Assembly: GCA_035697085.1 (NCBI GenBank)
Contig: DASSDP010000063.1
Span: forward strand, 1 to 44,322
Direction: 5' to 3'
Length of the DNA stretch: 44,322 nt
Source: Actinomycetota bacterium
Lineage (GTDB): Bacteria > Actinomycetota > UBA4738 > CALAEC01
This document shows positions 25,478-42,419 of this stretch, piece after piece (the stretch's first letter is position 1; each line of letters opens with the position of its first letter). The position numbers and the translations under genes were made by a program. Below the pieces are notes generated by a model, which saw nothing but the letters and a program-made list of their open reading frames with translations, ran no database searches and had not been told where the DNA came from.

Positions 25478-27979
25478 ATGAACGCGGGAAGCTCGGCAAC
25501 GCGCCGCGCGCTGAAGCGCGCGTCCGACGGCAAGACCCTCACGGTCGACGAGGCAGCCGTCCTCATGGGCGTTCGCGGAACGGCGCTCGAGGAGCTGTTG
25601 GCCGTCGCCGGTGCACTTCGCGATCTCGGTCAGGGCCGCACCGTCACGTATTCGAGAAAAGTGTTCATCCCGCTCACGATGCTGTGTCGAGACGTCTGCC
25701 ACTACTGCACGTTCGCGAAACCGCCCGCCCGACTGGACAAACCATTCCTCACGCCAGAGGACGTCGTGACCATCGCCGAGGCCGGACGCCGGGCCGGCTG
25801 CAAGGAAGCGCTGTTCACGCTGGGCGATCGCCCCGAGGAACGATATCCGGTTGCCAGAGATTGGCTCGCGGAACGCGGTTACCACTCGACGCTCGACTAC
25901 GTGCGCTCCGTCTCCATCACCGTCCTCGAGCGAACCGGCCTTCTCCCGCATCTGAACCCCGGCGTGATGACGTGGGAGGAAATGGCTCGACTGAAACATG
26001 TCTCGGCGTCGATGGGACTGATGCTCGAGCACGCCACGGATCGCTTGATGGAAAAGGGCATGCCCCATCACGGCTCGCCCGACAAGATCCCCGCGGTTCG
26101 ACTCCGCACGATCGAGGACGCGGGACGACTGTCGATCCCATTCACCACCGGGATCCTGGTCGGCATCGGAGAGACGTTGCAGGAGCGAGCGGAATCGGTG
26201 TTCGCCATTGCCAAGCTGCACCGTCGGTACCGCCACGTCCAGGAGGTCATCGTCCAGAACTTCAGGGCGAAGCCCGGGACCGCGATGCATGCGCATCCGG
26301 AACCGGAGACGGAGGAGTTCCTTGCCGCAGTGGCCACAGCGCGGGTGATCCTGGGTCCGAAGGTGAACCTGCAGGCTCCGCCGAACCTGTCGGACCCGCA
26401 CTATCCGCGCCTCCTCGATGCCGGCATCAACGATTGGGGAGGCGTCTCGCCGGTGACGCCCGATCACGTGAACCCCGAGGCGCCGTGGCCGAGGCTGGAC
26501 CACCTTCGGCAGCGAACCGAGGAGAAGGGCTTCTCCCTTCGCGAGCGCCTGTGCATCTATCCCGAGTACGCCATGAGGCCGGATCCGTTCCTCGCCGGAA
26601 AGATGCAACGGCCGGTCGCGGCCCTCGTCGGCTCCGATGGGCTGGCGGTGGAGGGGCAGCGTCCCGAGCCGGTGGAATGGCAGGACCCGGACGTGCAGTG
26701 GAAGCCGCGGCGAACCGAACTCACGTTCGCCAAGGGAGCAGACGCAGGCCTTCGCGAGGACTCCCTGGCCGTGTACGGGGACTGGGATGAGCTCGAGGTG
26801 ACCAGGAGCTGGATACGAGAACGCGTCCCCGGGCCCCGCCTCGATCGTGAGATCGCGAGGGCCCTGGGAAAGGCCGCGGCCGGCGGCCCGATCACAGATG
26901 CGGAGGCCCTCGCGCTGTTCAGGGCGGACGGGCCGGCACTGGAAGCGCTCTGCGAGGTCGCTGATGATCTCCGCCGCGAGGCGGTCGGCGACGACGTCAC
27001 CTACGTGGTGAACCGAAATGTCAACTTCACCAACGTGTGCTACACGGGGTGTCGGTTCTGCGCCTTCGCGCAGCGCGAGGTGGATGAGGACTCATACACG
27101 ATCACGCTGGACGAGGTGGCCGACAGAGCCGAAGAGGCCTGGCGATACGGCGCTACCGAGGTGTGCATGCAGGGCGGGCTCCATCCCAGTCTGCCGGGAG
27201 ACTTCTACTTTCAGCTCCTCGACGCGGTCAGGGCCCGAGTTCCCGATATCCACATACACGCGTTCAGTCCGATGGAAGTGCTGAATGGTTCCACACGGCT
27301 CGGAATCTCCTTCCGAGAGTTTCTCGAGGAATGCAAACGGCACGGTCTCGGCACCATCCCGGGCACGGCCGCAGAGATCCTGGACGATGACGTTCGTTGG
27401 CTGCTTACCAAAGGAAAGCTTCCTGCGGATACCTGGGAGGAGATCGTCAAGACCGCGCACGCGATCGGCATTCGTTCTTCGTCGACGATCATGTACGGAC
27501 ACGTCGATGCCCCTCCACATTGGGTCGCGCACATCCGAAGGCTCGCGCGTATCCAGGAGGAGACCGGCGGATTCACCGAGTTCGTTCCGCTGCCGTTCGT
27601 TCATCAGAACTCACCGATCTATCTCGCAGGGAAAGCGCGCGCCGGTGCAACATTTGAAGAAAATCGTCGCATGCATGCAATTGCGCGGATACTATTGACT
27701 GGTCGCATAACTAATGTTCAAGTTTCATGGGTGAAGATTGGAATCGATGCATGCAAAGTGATACTCGCCGGCGGCGCGAACGATTTCGGCGGCACGTTGA
27801 TGGAAGAGACGATCTCGCGAATGGCGGGAGCGGAATGGGGAATCAGGAAGGATCCATGGGAGTTCGAAGAAGCGATCCGTGCGATCGATCGCACGCCCGT
27901 GCAGCGAACGACAACGTACGAGCGGGTGGAAGCGTCACGTGTTCATCGCGTAGAATCGCCACGCGTCGCGCGGCCCTAG
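25478..27979 (+). CDS. fbiC: FO synthase, fused CofG+CofH radical-SAM halves
   Basis: ORF 25292..27979 trimmed to ATG 25478. Two radical-SAM cysteine motifs are present: CRDVCHYCTF and CYTGCRFCAF. 833 aa. Confidence 0.93.
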   Translation: MNAGSSATRRALKRASDGKTLTVDEAAVLMGVRGTALEELLAVAGALRDLGQGRTVTYSRKVFIPLTMLCRDVCHYCTFAKPPARLDKPFLTPEDVVTIAEAGRRAGCKEALFTLGDRPEERYPVARDWLAERGYHSTLDYVRSVSITVLERTGLLPHLNPGVMTWEEMARLKHVSASMGLMLEHATDRLMEKGMPHHGSPDKIPAVRLRTIEDAGRLSIPFTTGILVGIGETLQERAESVFAIAKLHRRYRHVQEVIVQNFRAKPGTAMHAHPEPETEEFLAAVATARVILGPKVNLQAPPNLSDPHYPRLLDAGINDWGGVSPVTPDHVNPEAPWPRLDHLRQRTEEKGFSLRERLCIYPEYAMRPDPFLAGKMQRPVAALVGSDGLAVEGQRPEPVEWQDPDVQWKPRRTELTFAKGADAGLREDSLAVYGDWDELEVTRSWIRERVPGPRLDREIARALGKAAAGGPITDAEALALFRADGPALEALCEVADDLRREAVGDDVTYVVNRNVNFTNVCYTGCRFCAFAQREVDEDSYTITLDEVADRAEEAWRYGATEVCMQGGLHPSLPGDFYFQLLDAVRARVPDIHIHAFSPMEVLNGSTRLGISFREFLEECKRHGLGTIPGTAAEILDDDVRWLLTKGKLPADTWEEIVKTAHAIGIRSSSTIMYGHVDAPPHWVAHIRRLARIQEETGGFTEFVPLPFVHQNSPIYLAGKARAGATFEENRRMHAIARILLTGRITNVQVSWVKIGIDACKVILAGGANDFGGTLMEETISRMAGAEWGIRKDPWEFEEAIRAIDRTPVQRTTTYERVEASRVHRVESPRVARP

Positions 27980-28060
27980 GTTTTCTTCCCTTCGGTGCTC
28001 GATTTCCCCAGAAAAAAAAGTCATCATCGGGACTGGACAAACGCGCGGCCCTTCCCTCAG

Positions 28061-28078
28061 AATTACACAAATGTAATT
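28061..28078. promoter_or_regulatory. Perfect 7-4-7 inverted repeat AATTACA-caaa-TGTAATT upstream of whiB (candidate operator)
   Basis: Read directly from the sequence. It lies 19 nt upstream of GTG 28097 and overlaps a TANNNT-type hexamer TAATTT (28074-28079). Confidence 0.35.
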
Positions 28079-28096
28079 TTGATGGGGGAGGGTGGA

Positions 28097-28324
28097 GTGC
28101 ACCACTACATCCCATGGCAAGAGCGAGCAAAGTGCCGGGACTTCGATCCCGAGATCTTCTTCCCCGAAAAAGGTGGATCGTCGCGGGAGGCGAAACGGAT
28201 TTGCGCCGACTGCGAGGTCCGCATCCAGTGCCTGAACTACGCGCTGCGCCGCGACGAGCGGTACGGCGTGTGGGGAGGGATGAGCGAACGGGAACGGCGA
28301 CGCCTGAAGCGTATGGCGTCCTGA
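28097..28324 (+). CDS. whiB: WhiB-family Fe-S transcription factor
   Basis: CRDFDPEIFFP...CADCEVRIQC...GVWGGMSERERRRLKR (four Cys plus the GVWGG turn). GTG 28097 has GGGGGAGG 5-6 nt upstream. ATG 28082 is an in-frame alternative; the track ORF starts at 27995. Confidence 0.9.
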   Translation: MHHYIPWQERAKCRDFDPEIFFPEKGGSSREAKRICADCEVRIQCLNYALRRDERYGVWGGMSERERRRLKRMAS

Positions 28325-28344
28325 AGAGCGAAAGGAGGTGAAGG

Positions 28345-28668
28345 ATGCCAGCAGCGCGTAAGAAGACGACCGCCAGAAAGAAGACCACCGCGCGGAAGAA
28401 GACCACCGCTGCGCGGAGGAAGACCACCGCACGGAAGACTACGGCTCGGAAGACTACGGCCCGGAAGACCACGGCACGTAGGAAGACTACGGCGCGTAGG
28501 AAGACTACGGCGCGGAAGAGCCCCGTGCGGAGGCGGAAGACAACGGCGCGGAGGAAGACGACGGCGCGGAAGAAGACCACCGCGGCGCGTAGGCCCACTG
28601 CGCGGAAGAGGCCCACAGCCAGGAAGAGGACGACGGCAAGGCGCACGGCCGCGAAGAAGTCGAAGTAG
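28345..28668 (+). CDS. Extremely basic Lys/Arg/Thr/Ala tandem-repeat protein (histone-like by composition only)
   Basis: AGGAGG (28333-28338) 6 nt before the ATG and 20 nt after the whiB stop. About 15 (K/R)(K)TTA(A)R units, no Asp/Glu. An intrinsic terminator follows. Confidence 0.72.
   Translation: MPAARKKTTARKKTTARKKTTAARRKTTARKTTARKTTARKTTARRKTTARRKTTARKSPVRRRKTTARRKTTARKKTTAARRPTARKRPTARKRTTARRTAAKKSK
28357..28656 (+). repeat. In-frame 15/18/21-bp tandem repeat array (AAG[AAG]ACNACNGCN[GCN]CGN)
   Basis: Visible directly in the sequence. Units differ mostly at third codon positions. It also creates the mirror FRAVVF-repeat ORF on the minus strand. Confidence 0.9.
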
Positions 28669-28697
28669 CGGACGGTGCCAAGAGCCTGTTCTCTTGG

Positions 28698-28728
28698 AAG
28701 GGGGGCGACTCGCCCCCCTTCTGCTGTT
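28698..28728 (+). terminator. Intrinsic terminator after the whiB/basic-protein pair
   Basis: AAGGGGGGCG (28698-28707) pairs perfectly with CGCCCCCCTT (28711-28720) around an ACT loop, followed by CTGCTGTT. Confidence 0.65.
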
Positions 28729-28801
28729 CGATGCTATGCTCCCGGCCACCCGAGGCGCTCAGGCCAGGATCTTGGTTGACTCTCCCACCTCAGCAGTCGG
28801 C

Positions 28802-31800
28802 ATGGCATCTTCCTCGGAGGCCGCCGGGACTCCGCCTCCGAGCGTGCTCGTCGTTCTGGTCGTCAAAGACGGCGCCGTCTGGCTGAGACGCACGCTCGCT
28901 TCGATCCGGCGCCAGACGCACGGCCGGCTGGCCGTCGTCGCCGTCGACAACGCTTCGTCCGACGGATCCACACAGATCCTCACCGAAGCTCTCGGCGAGG
29001 ACAGGGTGATTCGCTTGAATCGCAACGGTGGCTTCCCTGCAGCAGTGGCAGCGGCACTCTCGATCCCGGTTGCCCATAGAGCCGACTTCATCTTTCTGAT
29101 CCACGACGACACGGTCCTGGCCCCAGACACGGTGTCTCTGATGGTGGCGGCAGCCGGCGAGGGAGAAGGCGCAGGCGTCGTCGGGCCGAAGGTCCTCGAT
29201 TGGGAGCGCCCGCGGGTGCTCCGAGAGATCGGACTGGCCAGCGATCCGTTCGGGTATCCGTATTCGCCTCTCGAAGAGGACGAGATCGACCAGGGACAGT
29301 ACGACTCCCCTCGTGAGGTTCTGTTCGTGTCCTCGGCGGCGATGCTCATCTCCCGCGATGCGTGGTTGCGAGCGGGACTCTTCGATGAACGTCTGGGAAC
29401 CTGCCACGCGGACCTGGATTTCTGCTGGCGAGTGAGACTCGCTGGGTTTCGCGTGGTGATGAATCCGGGCGCCGTGGTTCTGCACCGAGCCGCTGGGCAG
29501 CGAGGGGAGAGGCCCGGATGGACCGGCGCCCGGGAGCGATACCTGGCCGAGCGGGCGGGACTGATGAGCCTCCTGAAGAACTACCGTCTGCTCAGCCTGG
29601 GATGGGTTCTTCCGCTCTACGCGTTCCAGGGGATCGGCAAGGTGTTCCTGTTCCTTCTGTCACGACGGTTTGCCGATGCGGGCCAAGTGGTCGCGGCATG
29701 GGGATGGAACGTCGTCCATCTTCCCGGGACGATCAGGCGACGTGTTCGTGGGCACGCGGTGCGTCGGGCTCGAGATCGCGACGTCGCTCGGTTCATGGCG
29801 CCTGCGGGAACCCGGCTGCGACGGTGGGGCCTCCAGGCAGCCTCGGTGCTGCTGGGGAGCAGAACGGGGCCGTTGGAGCCAGAGGAAGCCGTGGCCCCGC
29901 CGGTGGCGCGCCGGGTCCTCGGATTCATCGCGGCGCATCCCGTCGGCCTCTCGCTGGGTGCCGCCGTCGTCCTGACCGCGGTGGCGTTTCGCGGCGTCCT
30001 GTTCCTTTCCGAGCTGGAGGGTGGATCACTCCCCGTCTTTCCCTCGGGCGCCACGGATCTGTTCCGCGAATTCGGGTCCGGGTGGCGGTCGACTGGCTTC
30101 GGGGGAGCAGATGGTGCAAGCCCCGCTCTGTTCTTCCTCGGCGTGGGGAGCGCGATCACGCTCGGAAGCCCTCGGCTCCTGGTTCGGATCCTGATCGTGG
30201 GGGGTCCTCTGCTTGCCGGAGCGTCCTGTTACCGAGCCGTGCTTCGAATGACATCGCATCGGCTCGCAAGCCTCGTCGCCGCCGGATGCTACGCGCTCTC
30301 CGCGTTGACGATGTGGGTCGCGTCGGAGGGGCGGATCGCCGCGAGCGTGTTCCTGATCGCGATTCCGTGGGTTCTGGCCCGAATCGTCGAGGCGTTCCGT
30401 GGCCCGATCCATCGGCCGGGCCGATGGGCCGTCGGCACCGGGATGGCCCTCGCGGTCACCGCGTCCTTCTTTCCCGCTCTGTGGCTGGCGGTTGCGGTGA
30501 TCGTGGGTTCGTTCGTGGTGCTTCCGGAGTCCTTTCGGAACCTTCCTCGCGGCGTCGGGTTCATCGCGGCGACGGTCGGGATCGCCGCCGTCCTCCTCTT
30601 TCCCTTCACCCTGACCATCATCCGGGCGGGAGGCGACGCCGCCGTGGATGCGGCAGGAGTTGCCAGGTACGGCTCCGTCCTCCGATTGTCCGCAGGAGGA
30701 GCGCCGGGGTCGTGGGAGCCCGCGTTCTTCCTTCCTCTCGCCGGGACGTTGGCGCTCGCGGTCAGTGGCAACCTCCGACAGTCCCGGCGGTTGGCGCTCG
30801 CCGCGGGAGTCGCTCTGCTCCTGGCGTGGCTCGCAGCCGCGGGAAGACTTCCCGGATTCGCCGCCAATCCACTCGCGTATCTGGGGGTGGCCGCGGTGAG
30901 TCTGAGCGTGCTCGTCGCCTACGGGATGGCCGCCGAGCGCAGGGAGCTTCCGCTCGACCTGCGGCAACTTGTCTGGGGGAGCCTGGCAGCAGTGGTGGCC
31001 ATCGGGATCGCCCTGCAGAGCGCCCAGGCGTTCCGGGGTGCCTGGGCCATTGGGCAGGACCGAATACCTCCGGCCTGGTCCGTGGTTTCCTCCGCCAGTC
31101 CCGGCGTTCCCTTCCGAGTGTTGTGGCTCGGGGGGCCGGGCGGACGGGCGTTCGTTCCACCGGGAGGGGTCCCCGACGGAGTGATCGTCGCGGGCAAGGC
31201 CACCGTTCGGTACGGGGTAACCGGTCGGGACGGGCGGTCGGCACTCTCGCTCGGCCTGCCTCCAATCGGAGACGGGTACGACCACCTGCATCGAGTGGCC
31301 ACGGCGATCCTCCGAGGCACGGTGAGGCACGGTGGCGCGCTGCTGGCGACCCTGGGAGTCCACTACGTGGTGACGGATCCCCGTGATCTGCCTGCGGCGG
31401 CGAGGCGCCGCTTGAGCCAGCAGGTGGACCTCGATCTCATCCAGCGAGCCGGCGGCATGAGCGTGTACCGGAACGCACGAGCTCTTCCGGAAGCGTGGTC
31501 GGCTCCCGGCACGACATTCCAGATCGCAGCCCGTTCGGATCGGCTCACCGCGCCGGCGAGAGCCTATCCGGTCGGGGCACGGTCGCTCGATCGCCTGAGC
31601 TCCGCTTCGTGGGGGGGAGGGGTGACACTGCCCGAAGCGGGCGTCGTGATCGCGGCCACGAGCTACGACGCCAGGTGGCGACTGCAGACCGAAGAGGGGA
31701 CGGAGACCCTGCCGTTCCGGGCATTCGGCTGGGGCCTGGGCTTCGACGCTCCCGCCGCAGATACCCGCGTTCTGGTGTCGTTCCGGGGGCAGGGCGCCCG

Positions 31801-41020: not shown

Positions 41021-41785
41021 ATGCTCGACTTGCTGTTCCCGGGGCGCTGCGCGGCGTGCGGCGGGGGCACGTGGCCTCTGTGCCAACCATGCGCCGCCTC
41101 GGTTCCCGTGATCACGCTGCCGCTGTGCAACAGGTGCGGCCGGCCGACGGACTCGCCGGTGGCACGATGCGTCGACTGTCCGCCGAGAGAGATCGACGTG
41201 GCGAGAGCTCCATTCCTCTACGAGGGGCCCCTGGCCCGCACGGTTCGGGCCCTGAAGTTCGGTGGATGGCGAGCTTTAGCGGTGCCGCTGGCCGCGTCGA
41301 TGGCACGGGTTGGGCCACTCGAGGCGGAATGGGTGACCTGGGTTCCCCTATCGCGGAAGCGGCGAGCCGCTCGTGGATACGATCAGGCGGAAGTCCTGGC
41401 CCGGGAGCTGGCCCCACGCATTGGTCTGCCCGCCGTGGGGATGCTCCGCCGGATCCGGGAGACGCCGTCGCAGGCGAGTCGGTCCGGGAAAGAGCGGCGC
41501 CGAGCGCTCCGGGGTGCCTTCGCTGCCGACGGCGACGTGCGTCGGTCGATACTGCTCGTGGACGACGTCCTGACCACGGGAGCCACGGCGGCCGCTTGCG
41601 CCACCGCATTGAAGGAGGCCGGCGCGCGTCGGGTCGTGGTGGTGACCGCGGCCCGGTCCCTCCGCGGTCCGGTCCCGACCCGGTGCTTCGATATAATCGA
41701 TGCGTGCTCTCGTCCGGGTCTGTGGTTGCCCGGGGGATCCTCCTCCGGTAGTCGATGCCAGCCGCAGGCGAAACGACCCACGTAA
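41021..41785 (+). CDS. comF: ComF-family phosphoribosyltransferase-domain protein
   Basis: N-terminal zinc finger FPGRCAACGG...CQPC...CNRCGRP...CVDC. C-terminal PRT motif ILLVDDVLTTGATAAA. Confidence 0.85.
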   Translation: MLDLLFPGRCAACGGGTWPLCQPCAASVPVITLPLCNRCGRPTDSPVARCVDCPPREIDVARAPFLYEGPLARTVRALKFGGWRALAVPLAASMARVGPLEAEWVTWVPLSRKRRAARGYDQAEVLARELAPRIGLPAVGMLRRIRETPSQASRSGKERRRALRGAFAADGDVRRSILLVDDVLTTGATAAACATALKEAGARRVVVVTAARSLRGPVPTRCFDIIDACSRPGLWLPGGSSSGSRCQPQAKRPT

Positions 41786-41794
41786 GGCGACCCT

Positions 41795-41980
41795 TGGTTG
41801 CTGAGCATGGTGCGGCTTAGATGTAAGTCCTGCTCCGGGGACGATACGTCGCCGGGAGAAGATGCTAAGCGGCCGCTTCGGTCGCGACCCTCTCTGCAGG
41901 CGGGTGTGGGGGCAAAGACCAGGTCAGCCGGATGAGAGACCTGCGGGGGACCGGGATCGCTCCGGCCCCCCGCATTTTCA
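41795..41980 (+). ncRNA. Structured intergenic RNA between comF and hpf; candidate raiA-motif RNA
   Basis: 253-nt gap. Nested helices: GCTTAG 41815-41820 / CTAAGC 41865-41870 enclosing an imperfect hairpin at 41833-41858. Crossed CTCTC/GAGAG and GCAGG/CCTGC complementarity. The terminator-like hairpin at 41945-41970 lies about 60 nt before hpf. Confidence 0.4.
41945..41978 (+). terminator. Terminator-like GC hairpin plus T-tract upstream of hpf
   Basis: GGGGG(A)CCGG / CCGGCCCCC around a 7-nt loop, followed by CGCATTTT. Confidence 0.45.
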
Positions 41981-42038
41981 CGAGGCCCGCGTGGAGTACG
42001 CCAGGCGAACCGCGGTCAGGGCGAAGGAAGGAGCTCGG

Positions 42039-42419
42039 ATGGACCTCGTGGTGAAAGGTCGGGGCGGCCGGGTTTCGAGCCAGACCAAGTTGCGCGTCGA
42101 GCGCAAGGTGGAGAGACTGACCCGCCTGGAACCCCGGATCCAGCGGATCGAGGTGGAGTTCATCCATGAGCCCAACCGGCGGGTGGACGGCGGGTACCGG
42201 GTGGAGGCCGCGTGCTGGGTCTCTCGCCGGACCTTTCGGGCCTCCAGCACGGGCTCGGACATCGATGCCGCCCTGGACGGGGTCACGGAGCGCCTGGAGC
42301 GTCAGCTCACGGACGAGCACGGCAGACGCCGAACCCGGCGGATGTCGGGTGCGAATCGGCTAAAATCAGACGAGGGGATGGTTCGAAAGAACCAGACTGA
42401 GCCTCCCTTGGAGACTTAG
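42039..42419 (+). CDS. hpf: Ribosome hibernation factor, short (RaiA/YfiA-like) form
   Basis: ORF 41862..42419 trimmed to ATG 42039, after GAAGGAAGGAG. The sigma-54-modulation/S30AE fold pattern is MDLVVKGRGGRVSSQTKLRVERKVERL...IDAALDGVTERLERQL. Confidence 0.83.
   Translation: MDLVVKGRGGRVSSQTKLRVERKVERLTRLEPRIQRIEVEFIHEPNRRVDGGYRVEAACWVSRRTFRASSTGSDIDAALDGVTERLERQLTDEHGRRRTRRMSGANRLKSDEGMVRKNQTEPPLET

Follow-up and report, generated by a model that had tools for sequence, protein, structure and literature searches.

A histone-H1-like basic-repeat gene directly behind whiB in an uncultured lineage of Actinomycetota

Bacterial histone-H1-like repeat proteins are already known as a kind. The chlamydial protein Hc2 (HctB) stands alone, is built almost entirely from short repeats rich in Lys, Arg, Ala and Thr, lacks a folded domain and has its expression tied to developmental stage; its length varies with the number of repeats (PMC2848022). 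In the Actinomycetota, short Lys/Ala-rich repeats form the tails of the HU proteins HupB/Hlp/MDP1 and HupS, which have a role in nucleoid packaging in spores or dormancy (PMC4255298, PMC11229371), and the developmentally regulated DdbA of Streptomyces has an H1-like region and has been proposed to link nucleoid and transcription (PMC3643593). Lysine repeats also tune how TopA and Ku bind DNA (PMC5714199, PMC3553676). Other polyanions are bound as well: the H1-like repeats of Pseudomonas AlgP act on polyphosphate (polyP) granules (PMC9239181), and PhaF binds RNA through its disordered basic region (PMC12818456). We saw no account in the literature of an Arg/Thr-rich protein of this kind that stands alone and is fixed, throughout a large lineage of uncultured Actinomycetota, as the second gene of the whiB operon. 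Here, we describe a gene that appears to occupy this position in a 44,322-nt contig of an Actinomycetota bacterium (DASSDP010000063.1, assembly GCA_035697085.1; hereafter the window), where an open reading frame (ORF) of 107 codons, the basic-repeat gene, lies directly behind whiB.

The product of the basic-repeat gene is a polycation of 12.3 kDa with a net charge of about +48, for which the calculation of the isoelectric point hit its upper limit of 12. It is composed of 22 Lys, 27 Arg, 29 Thr, 21 Ala, four Pro, two Ser, one Val and one Met, so that Lys and Arg make up 46% of the residues and Asp and Glu are absent. The sequence begins MPAARKKTTARKKTTARKKTTAARRKTTARKTTARK and can be divided into 17 units of the form (K/R)2-3-T-T-A(A), with a single SPxR-like site (KSPVRRR). 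At the nucleotide level, Tandem Repeats Finder reported a period of 18 nt (16.1 copies) and one of 15 nt (9.1 copies); all the periods found (15, 18, 30 and 54 nt) are divisible by three. All 22 Lys codons are AAG, four or five codons each are used for Thr, Ala and Arg, and no two of the 10 exact KTTAR pentapeptides share the same 15-mer. The ORF follows the whiB stop after a gap of 20 nt (28325-28344) that holds a Shine-Dalgarno (SD) sequence, AGGAGG, 6 nt before the ATG. This layout, together with the acid-free tandem repeat of which about half is Lys and Arg, is as described in the first-pass annotation, which had been made from the letters of the window alone. The exact protein is also encoded on nine Joint Genome Institute (JGI) metagenome contigs, where it has been called as a gene.

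The repeat contains no stop in any of the six frames, and because of this the length of the ORF is no evidence of coding. A 267-aa antisense ORF (AVVFFRAVVFL..., 27843-28646, minus strand) covers the repeat together with the whole of whiB; it owes its existence solely to this lack of stops and is easily miscalled as a gene. The six open frames, this antisense ORF included, would equally suit a purine-rich 15/18-nt repeat that acts at the DNA or RNA level and carries the ORF by accident. Evidence on this point comes from related loci, which we fetched with WhiB as the anchor: 80 from the species-representative genomes of GTDB and 80 from metagenome contigs. About 60 of the 80 GTDB loci encode a WhiB that is 87-93% identical to that of the window, and all of them are from metagenome-assembled genomes (MAGs) of uncultured Actinomycetota. 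An uninterrupted basic-repeat ORF was found at the same position in 49 of the 58 usable GTDB loci (two end at a contig edge) and in 77 of the 80 metagenome contigs (74 complete, three ending at a contig edge), giving about 125 related loci altogether. In all clade loci examined, an SD sequence of the GGAGG or GAAAGGGGG type stands 5-12 nt before a conserved ATG. The N-termini of the orthologues fall into a few types (MSPAKK, MAAAKK, MAMAKK and MPAA[KR]K), and the C-termini mostly read A-K/R-K/R-R.

Codon comparison and composition point the same way. In a protein-guided comparison, the ratio of nonsynonymous to synonymous divergence (dN/dS) was 0.08-0.35 in 14 of 15 orthologue pairs and 0.89 in one, with dS up to about 1; the identical procedure applied to shifted frames gave pN/pS values of about 0.5-1.4. 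Gaps in DNA-level pairwise alignments, many of them not multiples of three, turned out to be artefacts, since both partners were frame-intact, and for this reason the protein-guided comparison was used instead. The best self-repeat lag was divisible by three in 49 of 49 orthologues, and in many of these the third codon positions differ more between units than the first and second positions do. Across the 123 ORFs without Asp or Glu (13,695 residues), Cys, His, Trp and Tyr never occur, and Phe, Leu, Ile and Asn account for eight residues; among basic frames that are otherwise uninterrupted, an acidic residue occurs just once, as a C-terminal Asp in locus L164. For comparison, 8.6% of single-base nonsynonymous changes would give Asp or Glu, and 20% would give one of F/W/Y/C/H/L/I/N. 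The orthologues are 41-167 aa long and consist almost exclusively of K, R, A, T, S and P, arranged in units of 5-6 (or 11) residues with two or three basic and three small residues; the type of unit differs between sub-lineages (KKTAARKPAAR, KRKVAAKKTA, RKSTA, KKSTAKR and KKSA). Because whole residue classes are excluded and units and lengths vary, selection appears to act on composition and charge pattern and not on a fixed sequence. Overall, these comparisons indicate that the ORF at 28345-28668 is a genuine protein-coding gene.

The other observation in favour of a non-coding repeat is that the frame is broken in some relatives. A frame change inside the repeat was seen in eight of the 56 unmasked GTDB loci (a ninth locus, L008, is partly masked by N) and in 2-3 of the 80 metagenome contigs, which we take to be mostly short-read assemblies. 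The breaks are concentrated in the MAGs of the Microflora Danica (MFD) project, with seven of 18 MFD loci affected (L021, L024, L028, L029, L046, L058 and L061) against one of 38 others (Fisher p = 9e-4), and these MAGs were assembled from Nanopore reads (PMC12313526). Two of the loci, L024 and L029, go out of frame and then back, as is typical of indel errors. Most of the frame breaks are thus best explained, from the pattern in the sequences, as sequencing error. Against this background, the conserved SD, ATG, stop and basic C-terminus, a dN/dS of about 0.2 in this frame only, the exclusion of acidic and hydrophobic residues despite a dS of up to about 1, and repeat periods that are all multiples of three make an accidental ORF hardly credible. 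The view of the first-pass annotation that the repeat is an old one held at the protein level agrees with the low dN/dS, the third-position divergence between units and the ten different KTTAR 15-mers. Its question whether the frame is always kept has a mixed answer: the frame is uninterrupted in most GTDB loci and nearly all contigs, yet breaks exist, mostly in nanopore MAGs but also in the short-read loci L027, L134 and L116. As a side observation, indels in long-read MAGs seem to cluster in purine-rich coding repeats of this kind, and frame-broken copies would be mis-annotated as acidic 'EEDGRSQ' proteins or as a fusion with the next gene (as in L046).

The arrangement of the locus suggests that whiB and the basic-repeat gene form a compact bicistronic operon. 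This view is based on four features: the short gap, which across the loci measures 13-125 nt and mostly 19-60 nt; the lack of any called promoter or terminator when the window's gap was scanned for both; a promoter conserved upstream of whiB; and a hairpin conserved after the second gene. The hairpin, whose larger part begins 29 nt past the stop codon, has the arms AAGGGGGGCG (28698-28707) and CGCCCCCCTT (28711-28720), which pair perfectly over 10 bp, or over 13 bp when G-U pairs are counted, and the 81-nt fold after the gene has a z-score of -4.4 relative to shuffled sequences. The T-tract that follows is weak (TTCTGCTGTT, with scattered T), and a consensus terminator scan made no call there; actinobacterial terminators often do without a long U-tract. 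Of 48 GTDB loci, 46 have a GAAGGGGGGC-loop-GCCCCCCTTC hairpin 14-27 nt beyond the stop codon, in which the loop varies and the bases of the inner stem co-vary; in the metagenome set, 71 of 72 loci show a looser hairpin-like motif of a G-run and a C-run no more than 70 nt from the stop. Beside this, one sub-lineage (L008, L011, L025, L050, L068 and L071) has a longer gap of 58-80 nt, in which some members carry a hairpin-like CGGTTC-N3-GAACCG before the SD that could tune the relative expression of the two cistrons.

The basic-repeat gene was absent from more distant relatives. No basic ORF followed whiB in 17 of 17 fetched loci whose WhiB is at most 76% identical to that of the window, a set made up of Streptosporangiaceae, Brevibacterium, Gordonia, Nocardioidaceae, Nanopelagicales, Egibacteraceae and MAGs. 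In 11 of the 17, whiB is followed by the homologue of the large GT2 gene, either directly or no more than about 270 nt beyond the point where the WhiB match ends. Within the Actinomycetes sampled, the absence of the ORF from these loci points to a lineage-specific insertion between whiB and the GT2 gene, in what is a large uncultured lineage of soil and groundwater Actinomycetota. The two-gene unit and the perfect 10-bp GC hairpin behind it, both proposed in the first-pass annotation, are thus borne out by the short gap with its SD, the promoter conserved before whiB and a hairpin (28698-28720) whose stem is conserved only after the second gene and whose T-tract is weak; its impression that such a gene is unusual at this place matches the 17 loci, and the neighbourhood comparison it had called for found the ORF recurring behind whiB in one uncultured lineage. 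Contigs with the actinobacterial whiB locus were also found binned as Planctomycetaceae (L031), Candidatus Saccharibacteria (L067) and Acidimicrobiales (L068), and are probably mis-binned; in L067, neither the basic ORF nor the synteny of the flanks is present, and its WhiB may be a different paralogue.

WhiB (WhiB2/WhmD) is essential in Mycobacterium tuberculosis and is a conserved division and septation switch across the Actinomycetota. In the window, the WhiB product scored 97.2 bits against the Pfam Whib model (cutoff 23.6) and has the four Cys ligands C13/C36/C39/C45 (C-X22-C-X2-C-X5-C) and the GVWGG turn. Its best match in the PDB was Streptomyces venezuelae WhiB in the complex of RNA polymerase with WhiA and WhiB (8DY7/8DY9, 112 bits), and the scores for WhiB1 (66 bits), WhiB4 (50), WhiB3 (42) and WhiB7 (40) were lower. 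The gene order from 20231 to 40256 runs GT2, NTP-transferase, DUF3105, cofE/fbiB, cofD, fbiC, whiB and the basic-repeat gene, and then a large GT2 gene, DUF5719, L,D-transpeptidase and others up to phosphomannomutase, a PGI/PMI-type isomerase and sahH. This resembles the order of the M. tuberculosis whiB2 region, Rv3248c-Rv3266c. Because of the 112-bit match and the likeness of the neighbourhood, the upstream gene is, judged from its sequence, an orthologue of WhiB/WhiB2/WhmD, the activator of division and sporulation septation (PMC4255298, PMC10243135, PMC13473873). The coordinates of the two genes and their signals are listed in Table 1.

Table 1. Features of the whiB and basic-repeat gene unit in the window.
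Feature	Position	Strand	Description
Promoter-like site before whiB	28034..28063	+	-35 TGGACA, 18 nt, -10 CAGAAT
Palindrome AATTACA-CAAA-TGTAATT	28061..28078	+	overlaps the -10 hexamer and start region
whiB, developmental WhiB/WhiB2/WhmD type	28097..28324	+	75 aa; GTG start, TGA stop, SD GGGGGAGGG
Shine-Dalgarno AGGAGG of the basic-repeat gene	28333..28338	+	read from sequence; 6-nt spacer to the ATG at 28345
Basic-repeat protein gene	28345..28668	+	107 aa; ORF, composition and orthologues
Small hairpin CCAAGAG-CCTGTT-CTCTTGG	28678..28697	+	RNA fold; directly before the larger hairpin
Terminator-like hairpin AAGGGGGGCG-ACT-CGCCCCCCTT, T-poor tail	28698..28730	+	RNA fold

The control region of whiB is conserved along with the gene. 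In an alignment of 62 loci, the GTG start behind the GGGGGAGGG SD was retained, and CTTGTCA-N17/18-CAGAAT (-35/-10) was kept clade-wide; the promoter scan of this region called one site against 0.1 expected from shuffles. The palindrome that overlaps the -10 hexamer has the clade form AATCACA-N4-TGTGATT and an invariant position in 135 of 161 loci. At the variable position of its arms, 108 loci have C..G, 20 have T..A, seven have T..G and none has C..A, which means that both arms have changed together, with wobble-type intermediates only. Judged from its sequence and position, the palindrome could be an operator, or a leader RNA hairpin if a promoter further upstream is used. In Streptomyces, whiB is repressed by BldD and BldO, and the BldO site overlaps the -10 element and the transcription start site (PMC5485038, PMC10243135). 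A CRP-type site was rejected for the palindrome, as its half-sites stand in the reversed order (TCACA..TGTGA). On the 3' side of the unit, the mechanical ORF list places the start of the GT2 gene that follows at TTG 28694, which falls within the terminator hairpin, and gene calls on identical contigs start it at the equivalent of about 28802-28803 or 28844. With these later starts, the hairpin lies within a true intergenic gap of about 135-175 nt.

The basic-repeat protein resembles Hc2 and the tails of histone H1 and HU proteins by its composition alone. No folded domain was detected in it with Pfam, NCBIfam or PHROGs, and the Rfam scan had no match in or near the locus. The best of the AlphaFold models, predicted from the single sequence, is one long helix (residues 15-58, pLDDT 77, pTM 0.32), the other four have a pLDDT of 52-60 and agreement among the models is poor, a result that we read as 'no globular fold' only. 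Against Pfam HC2 (PF07382) and NCBIfam NF038052, the protein scored 24.0 and 25.2 bits, under cutoffs of 40 and 135, respectively. Of ten orthologues, three passed the HC2 cutoff (63.1, 43.3 and 42.9 bits) and seven missed it, from which it follows that automatic annotation would name some members 'histone H1-like nucleoprotein HC2'. These matches reflect composition, and common ancestry is not demonstrable from such a low-complexity match. A search of 5.8 billion clustered proteins gave one match, P0001, an HU protein with a KTTAR tail (RKTTARKTTARKTTARKTTARK), and an exhaustive phmmer search of 1.84 billion representatives gave 12 proteins at E <= 1e-3, all with KTTAR/KKTTARK-type tails on unrelated bodies. 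For a basic-repeat sequence of such low complexity, homology is not establishable. Two HU-fold proteins (P0001 and P0124) and an HTH protein (P0126) carry identical RKTTARKTTARK units, and repeats of the KTTAR type have probably been recruited convergently as a DNA-binding appendage outside the Actinomycetota. The RKTTARK/KKTTARK tails of P0001 and P0124 are N- or C-terminal, and one of the two proteins is labelled Phycisphaerales.

Compared with the described systems, the basic-repeat protein is closest to Hc2, as both are stand-alone proteins of short Lys/Arg/Ala/Thr-rich repeats, free of folded domains and variable in length (41-167 aa here). It differs from Hc2 in being shorter and richer in Arg and Thr, in its whiB operon and in the phylum that carries it. 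With the HU proteins of its own phylum it shares the short basic repeats, but it gave no match to PF00216 (Bac_DNA_binding) at E <= 0.01 and resembles their tail without the body, in another genomic context. Unlike DdbA, which is not encoded beside whiB, it has no C-terminal DksA-like zinc finger or other domain (no Pfam match and no Cys). AlgP and PhaF are comparable by analogy, as low-complexity basic repeats that bind polyanions, but they have an additional N-terminal domain and Pro-rich KPAA-type tetrapeptides, whereas the protein described here has four Pro in 107 residues, units of 5-6 residues and no non-repeat domain. Finally, it recalls the C-terminal domain of the eukaryotic linker histone H1, a disordered Lys/Ala/Thr/Ser/Pro tail that neutralises DNA charge, but it lacks the winged-helix globular domain and is high in Arg; no descent is implied.

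By analogy with these proteins, we lean, by a small degree over even chances, towards the basic-repeat product being a stand-alone histone-H1/Hc2-like polycation that is made together with WhiB and coats or compacts DNA. Such a polycation would bind the phosphate backbone of nucleic acids without sequence specificity, most probably that of chromosomal DNA, and once bound it would neutralise charge and compact or coat the nucleoid. It would share the whiB promoter, and its strong SD suggests efficient translation. The polycation would then accumulate upon induction of WhiB, when division or dormancy genes are switched on, and nucleoid compaction would be coupled to WhiB-driven division, in a manner comparable to HupS in Streptomyces spores and Hc2 in chlamydial elementary bodies. 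Three lines of evidence make DNA the likeliest target: the same repeat is appended to HU and HTH DNA-binding folds; the basic repeats of HupB/HupS, TopA, Ku and DdbA act on DNA (PMC4255298, PMC11229371, PMC5714199, PMC3553676, PMC3643593); and Hc2, the closest stand-alone analogue, condenses the nucleoid of chlamydiae and shows the same kind of variation in the number of repeats (PMC2848022).

Several points weigh against this assignment. All carriers are uncultured, and a function for the family is drawn by analogy. The HC2 matches are compositional and, for the protein of the window, below the cutoff; co-transcription with whiB is deduced from layout; and the linkage to whiB could be a historical accident of the place where the gene arose. 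The frame changes in the short-read loci L027, L134 and L116 go beyond what nanopore error accounts for. In addition, a polycation would have no less affinity for RNA or polyphosphate than for DNA, and AlgP (polyP granules, PMC9239181) and PhaF (RNA, PMC12818456) are H1-like repeat proteins with other targets.

The last point leads to the alternative that survives best, which is a polycation acting elsewhere than on DNA, either as a binder of RNA or ribosomes (a chaperone, hibernation factor or translation activator) or on polyphosphate granules. The argument from composition applies equally to RNA and polyP, the two Pseudomonas proteins set precedents, and about 40% of the basic residues are Arg, which is above the level in the Lys/Ala-rich repeats of Hc2 and the HU and Ku tails. 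However, among the repeat matches that are joined to a folded domain, the closest are DNA-binding proteins of the HU and HTH types. Similarity to ribosomal proteins was lacking, as the PDB sequence search gave uL4 matches only, which were non-significant (best E = 0.4). We consider a target other than DNA unlikely, though deserving of real weight.

A closer relation to WhiB itself is less probable still. The product could be a dedicated WhiB cofactor that binds WhiB, or the assembly of WhiB with sigmaA4 and WhiA, and adds non-specific DNA affinity or alters the range of promoters. The strict retention of the two-gene unit across about 125 loci would suit such a role, and the DNA contacts of Wbl proteins are weak or made through basic motifs, namely the AT-hook of WhiB7 and, in WhiB, a loop and a C-terminal Arg (PMC10243135). 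But a search with a chimeric WhiB-plus-repeat query (452 matches at E <= 1e-3) showed no WhiB-basic-repeat fusion among the 120 matches listed, and the longer matches were N-terminal extensions or out-of-frame read-through. Moreover, the basic-repeat protein has no conserved non-repeat motif that could provide a specific interface, and its length and unit type vary freely, in contrast to a WhiB that is 87-93% identical. A dedicated cofactor is therefore improbable, and the proposal in the first-pass annotation of a physical partner of WhiB has synteny as its sole support. The same annotation had pictured a Thr-rich, possibly kinase-regulated protein, an idea that the orthologues weaken: the Thr-Thr unit is species-specific, the relatives have T-A, S-T, S-A or P-A in its place, and Ser and Thr together range from 8 to 35%. 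It had also counted a missing peptide as refutation; because Lys or Arg occurs every 2-6 residues, failure to detect a tryptic peptide would not be a valid one.

A related proposal, to which we give similarly little credence, is that the basic protein is a detachable, disordered DNA-tethering subunit that loads or spreads from complexes of WhiB with sigmaA (and WhiA), the gene having possibly arisen de novo from an intergenic purine-rich repeat. If it were true, the operon would encode a two-part regulator, a new architecture of Wbl action. Barely plausible is a leader-peptide attenuator, in which a K/R/T/A ORF senses charged tRNA and controls read-through into the GT/DUF5719 envelope genes: the stop codon always lies near the hairpin (14-27 nt) and the downstream genes are on the same strand, but known leader peptides are far shorter, the ORF stands behind whiB and not at the start of the transcript, the fold showed no alternative pairing that could act as an antiterminator, and neither selection on composition over 41-167 codons nor a strong SD would be needed.

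One further element of the window lies apart from this unit. The Rfam scan identified a raiA RNA motif (RF03072) at 41709-41936 on the plus strand, with a score of 154 bits that exceeds the gathering score. The motif lies before an S30AE/hibernation-factor ORF (41862-42416) and extends over its called start. The true start of this ORF is probably further downstream, because the Pfam match begins at residue 63. The tRNA scan found no tRNA gene in the window.

The coordination of division with chromosome compaction is only partly understood, and in Streptomyces it involves separately encoded nucleoid proteins such as HupS. In the uncultured soil lineage described here, a gene for a histone-H1-like polycation appears, from its sequence context, to be built into the whiB transcription unit. 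The family is a clean example of strong selection on composition and not on sequence, and it also teaches caution in practice, as genes of this type come out with broken frames in nanopore MAGs, escape homology searches and go unseen in tryptic proteomics. Should the protein indeed coat DNA, the nucleoid proteins known from the Actinomycetota would gain a stand-alone member without any domain, and the unit would provide a natural case in which a division regulator and a nucleoid compactor are expressed as one unit.

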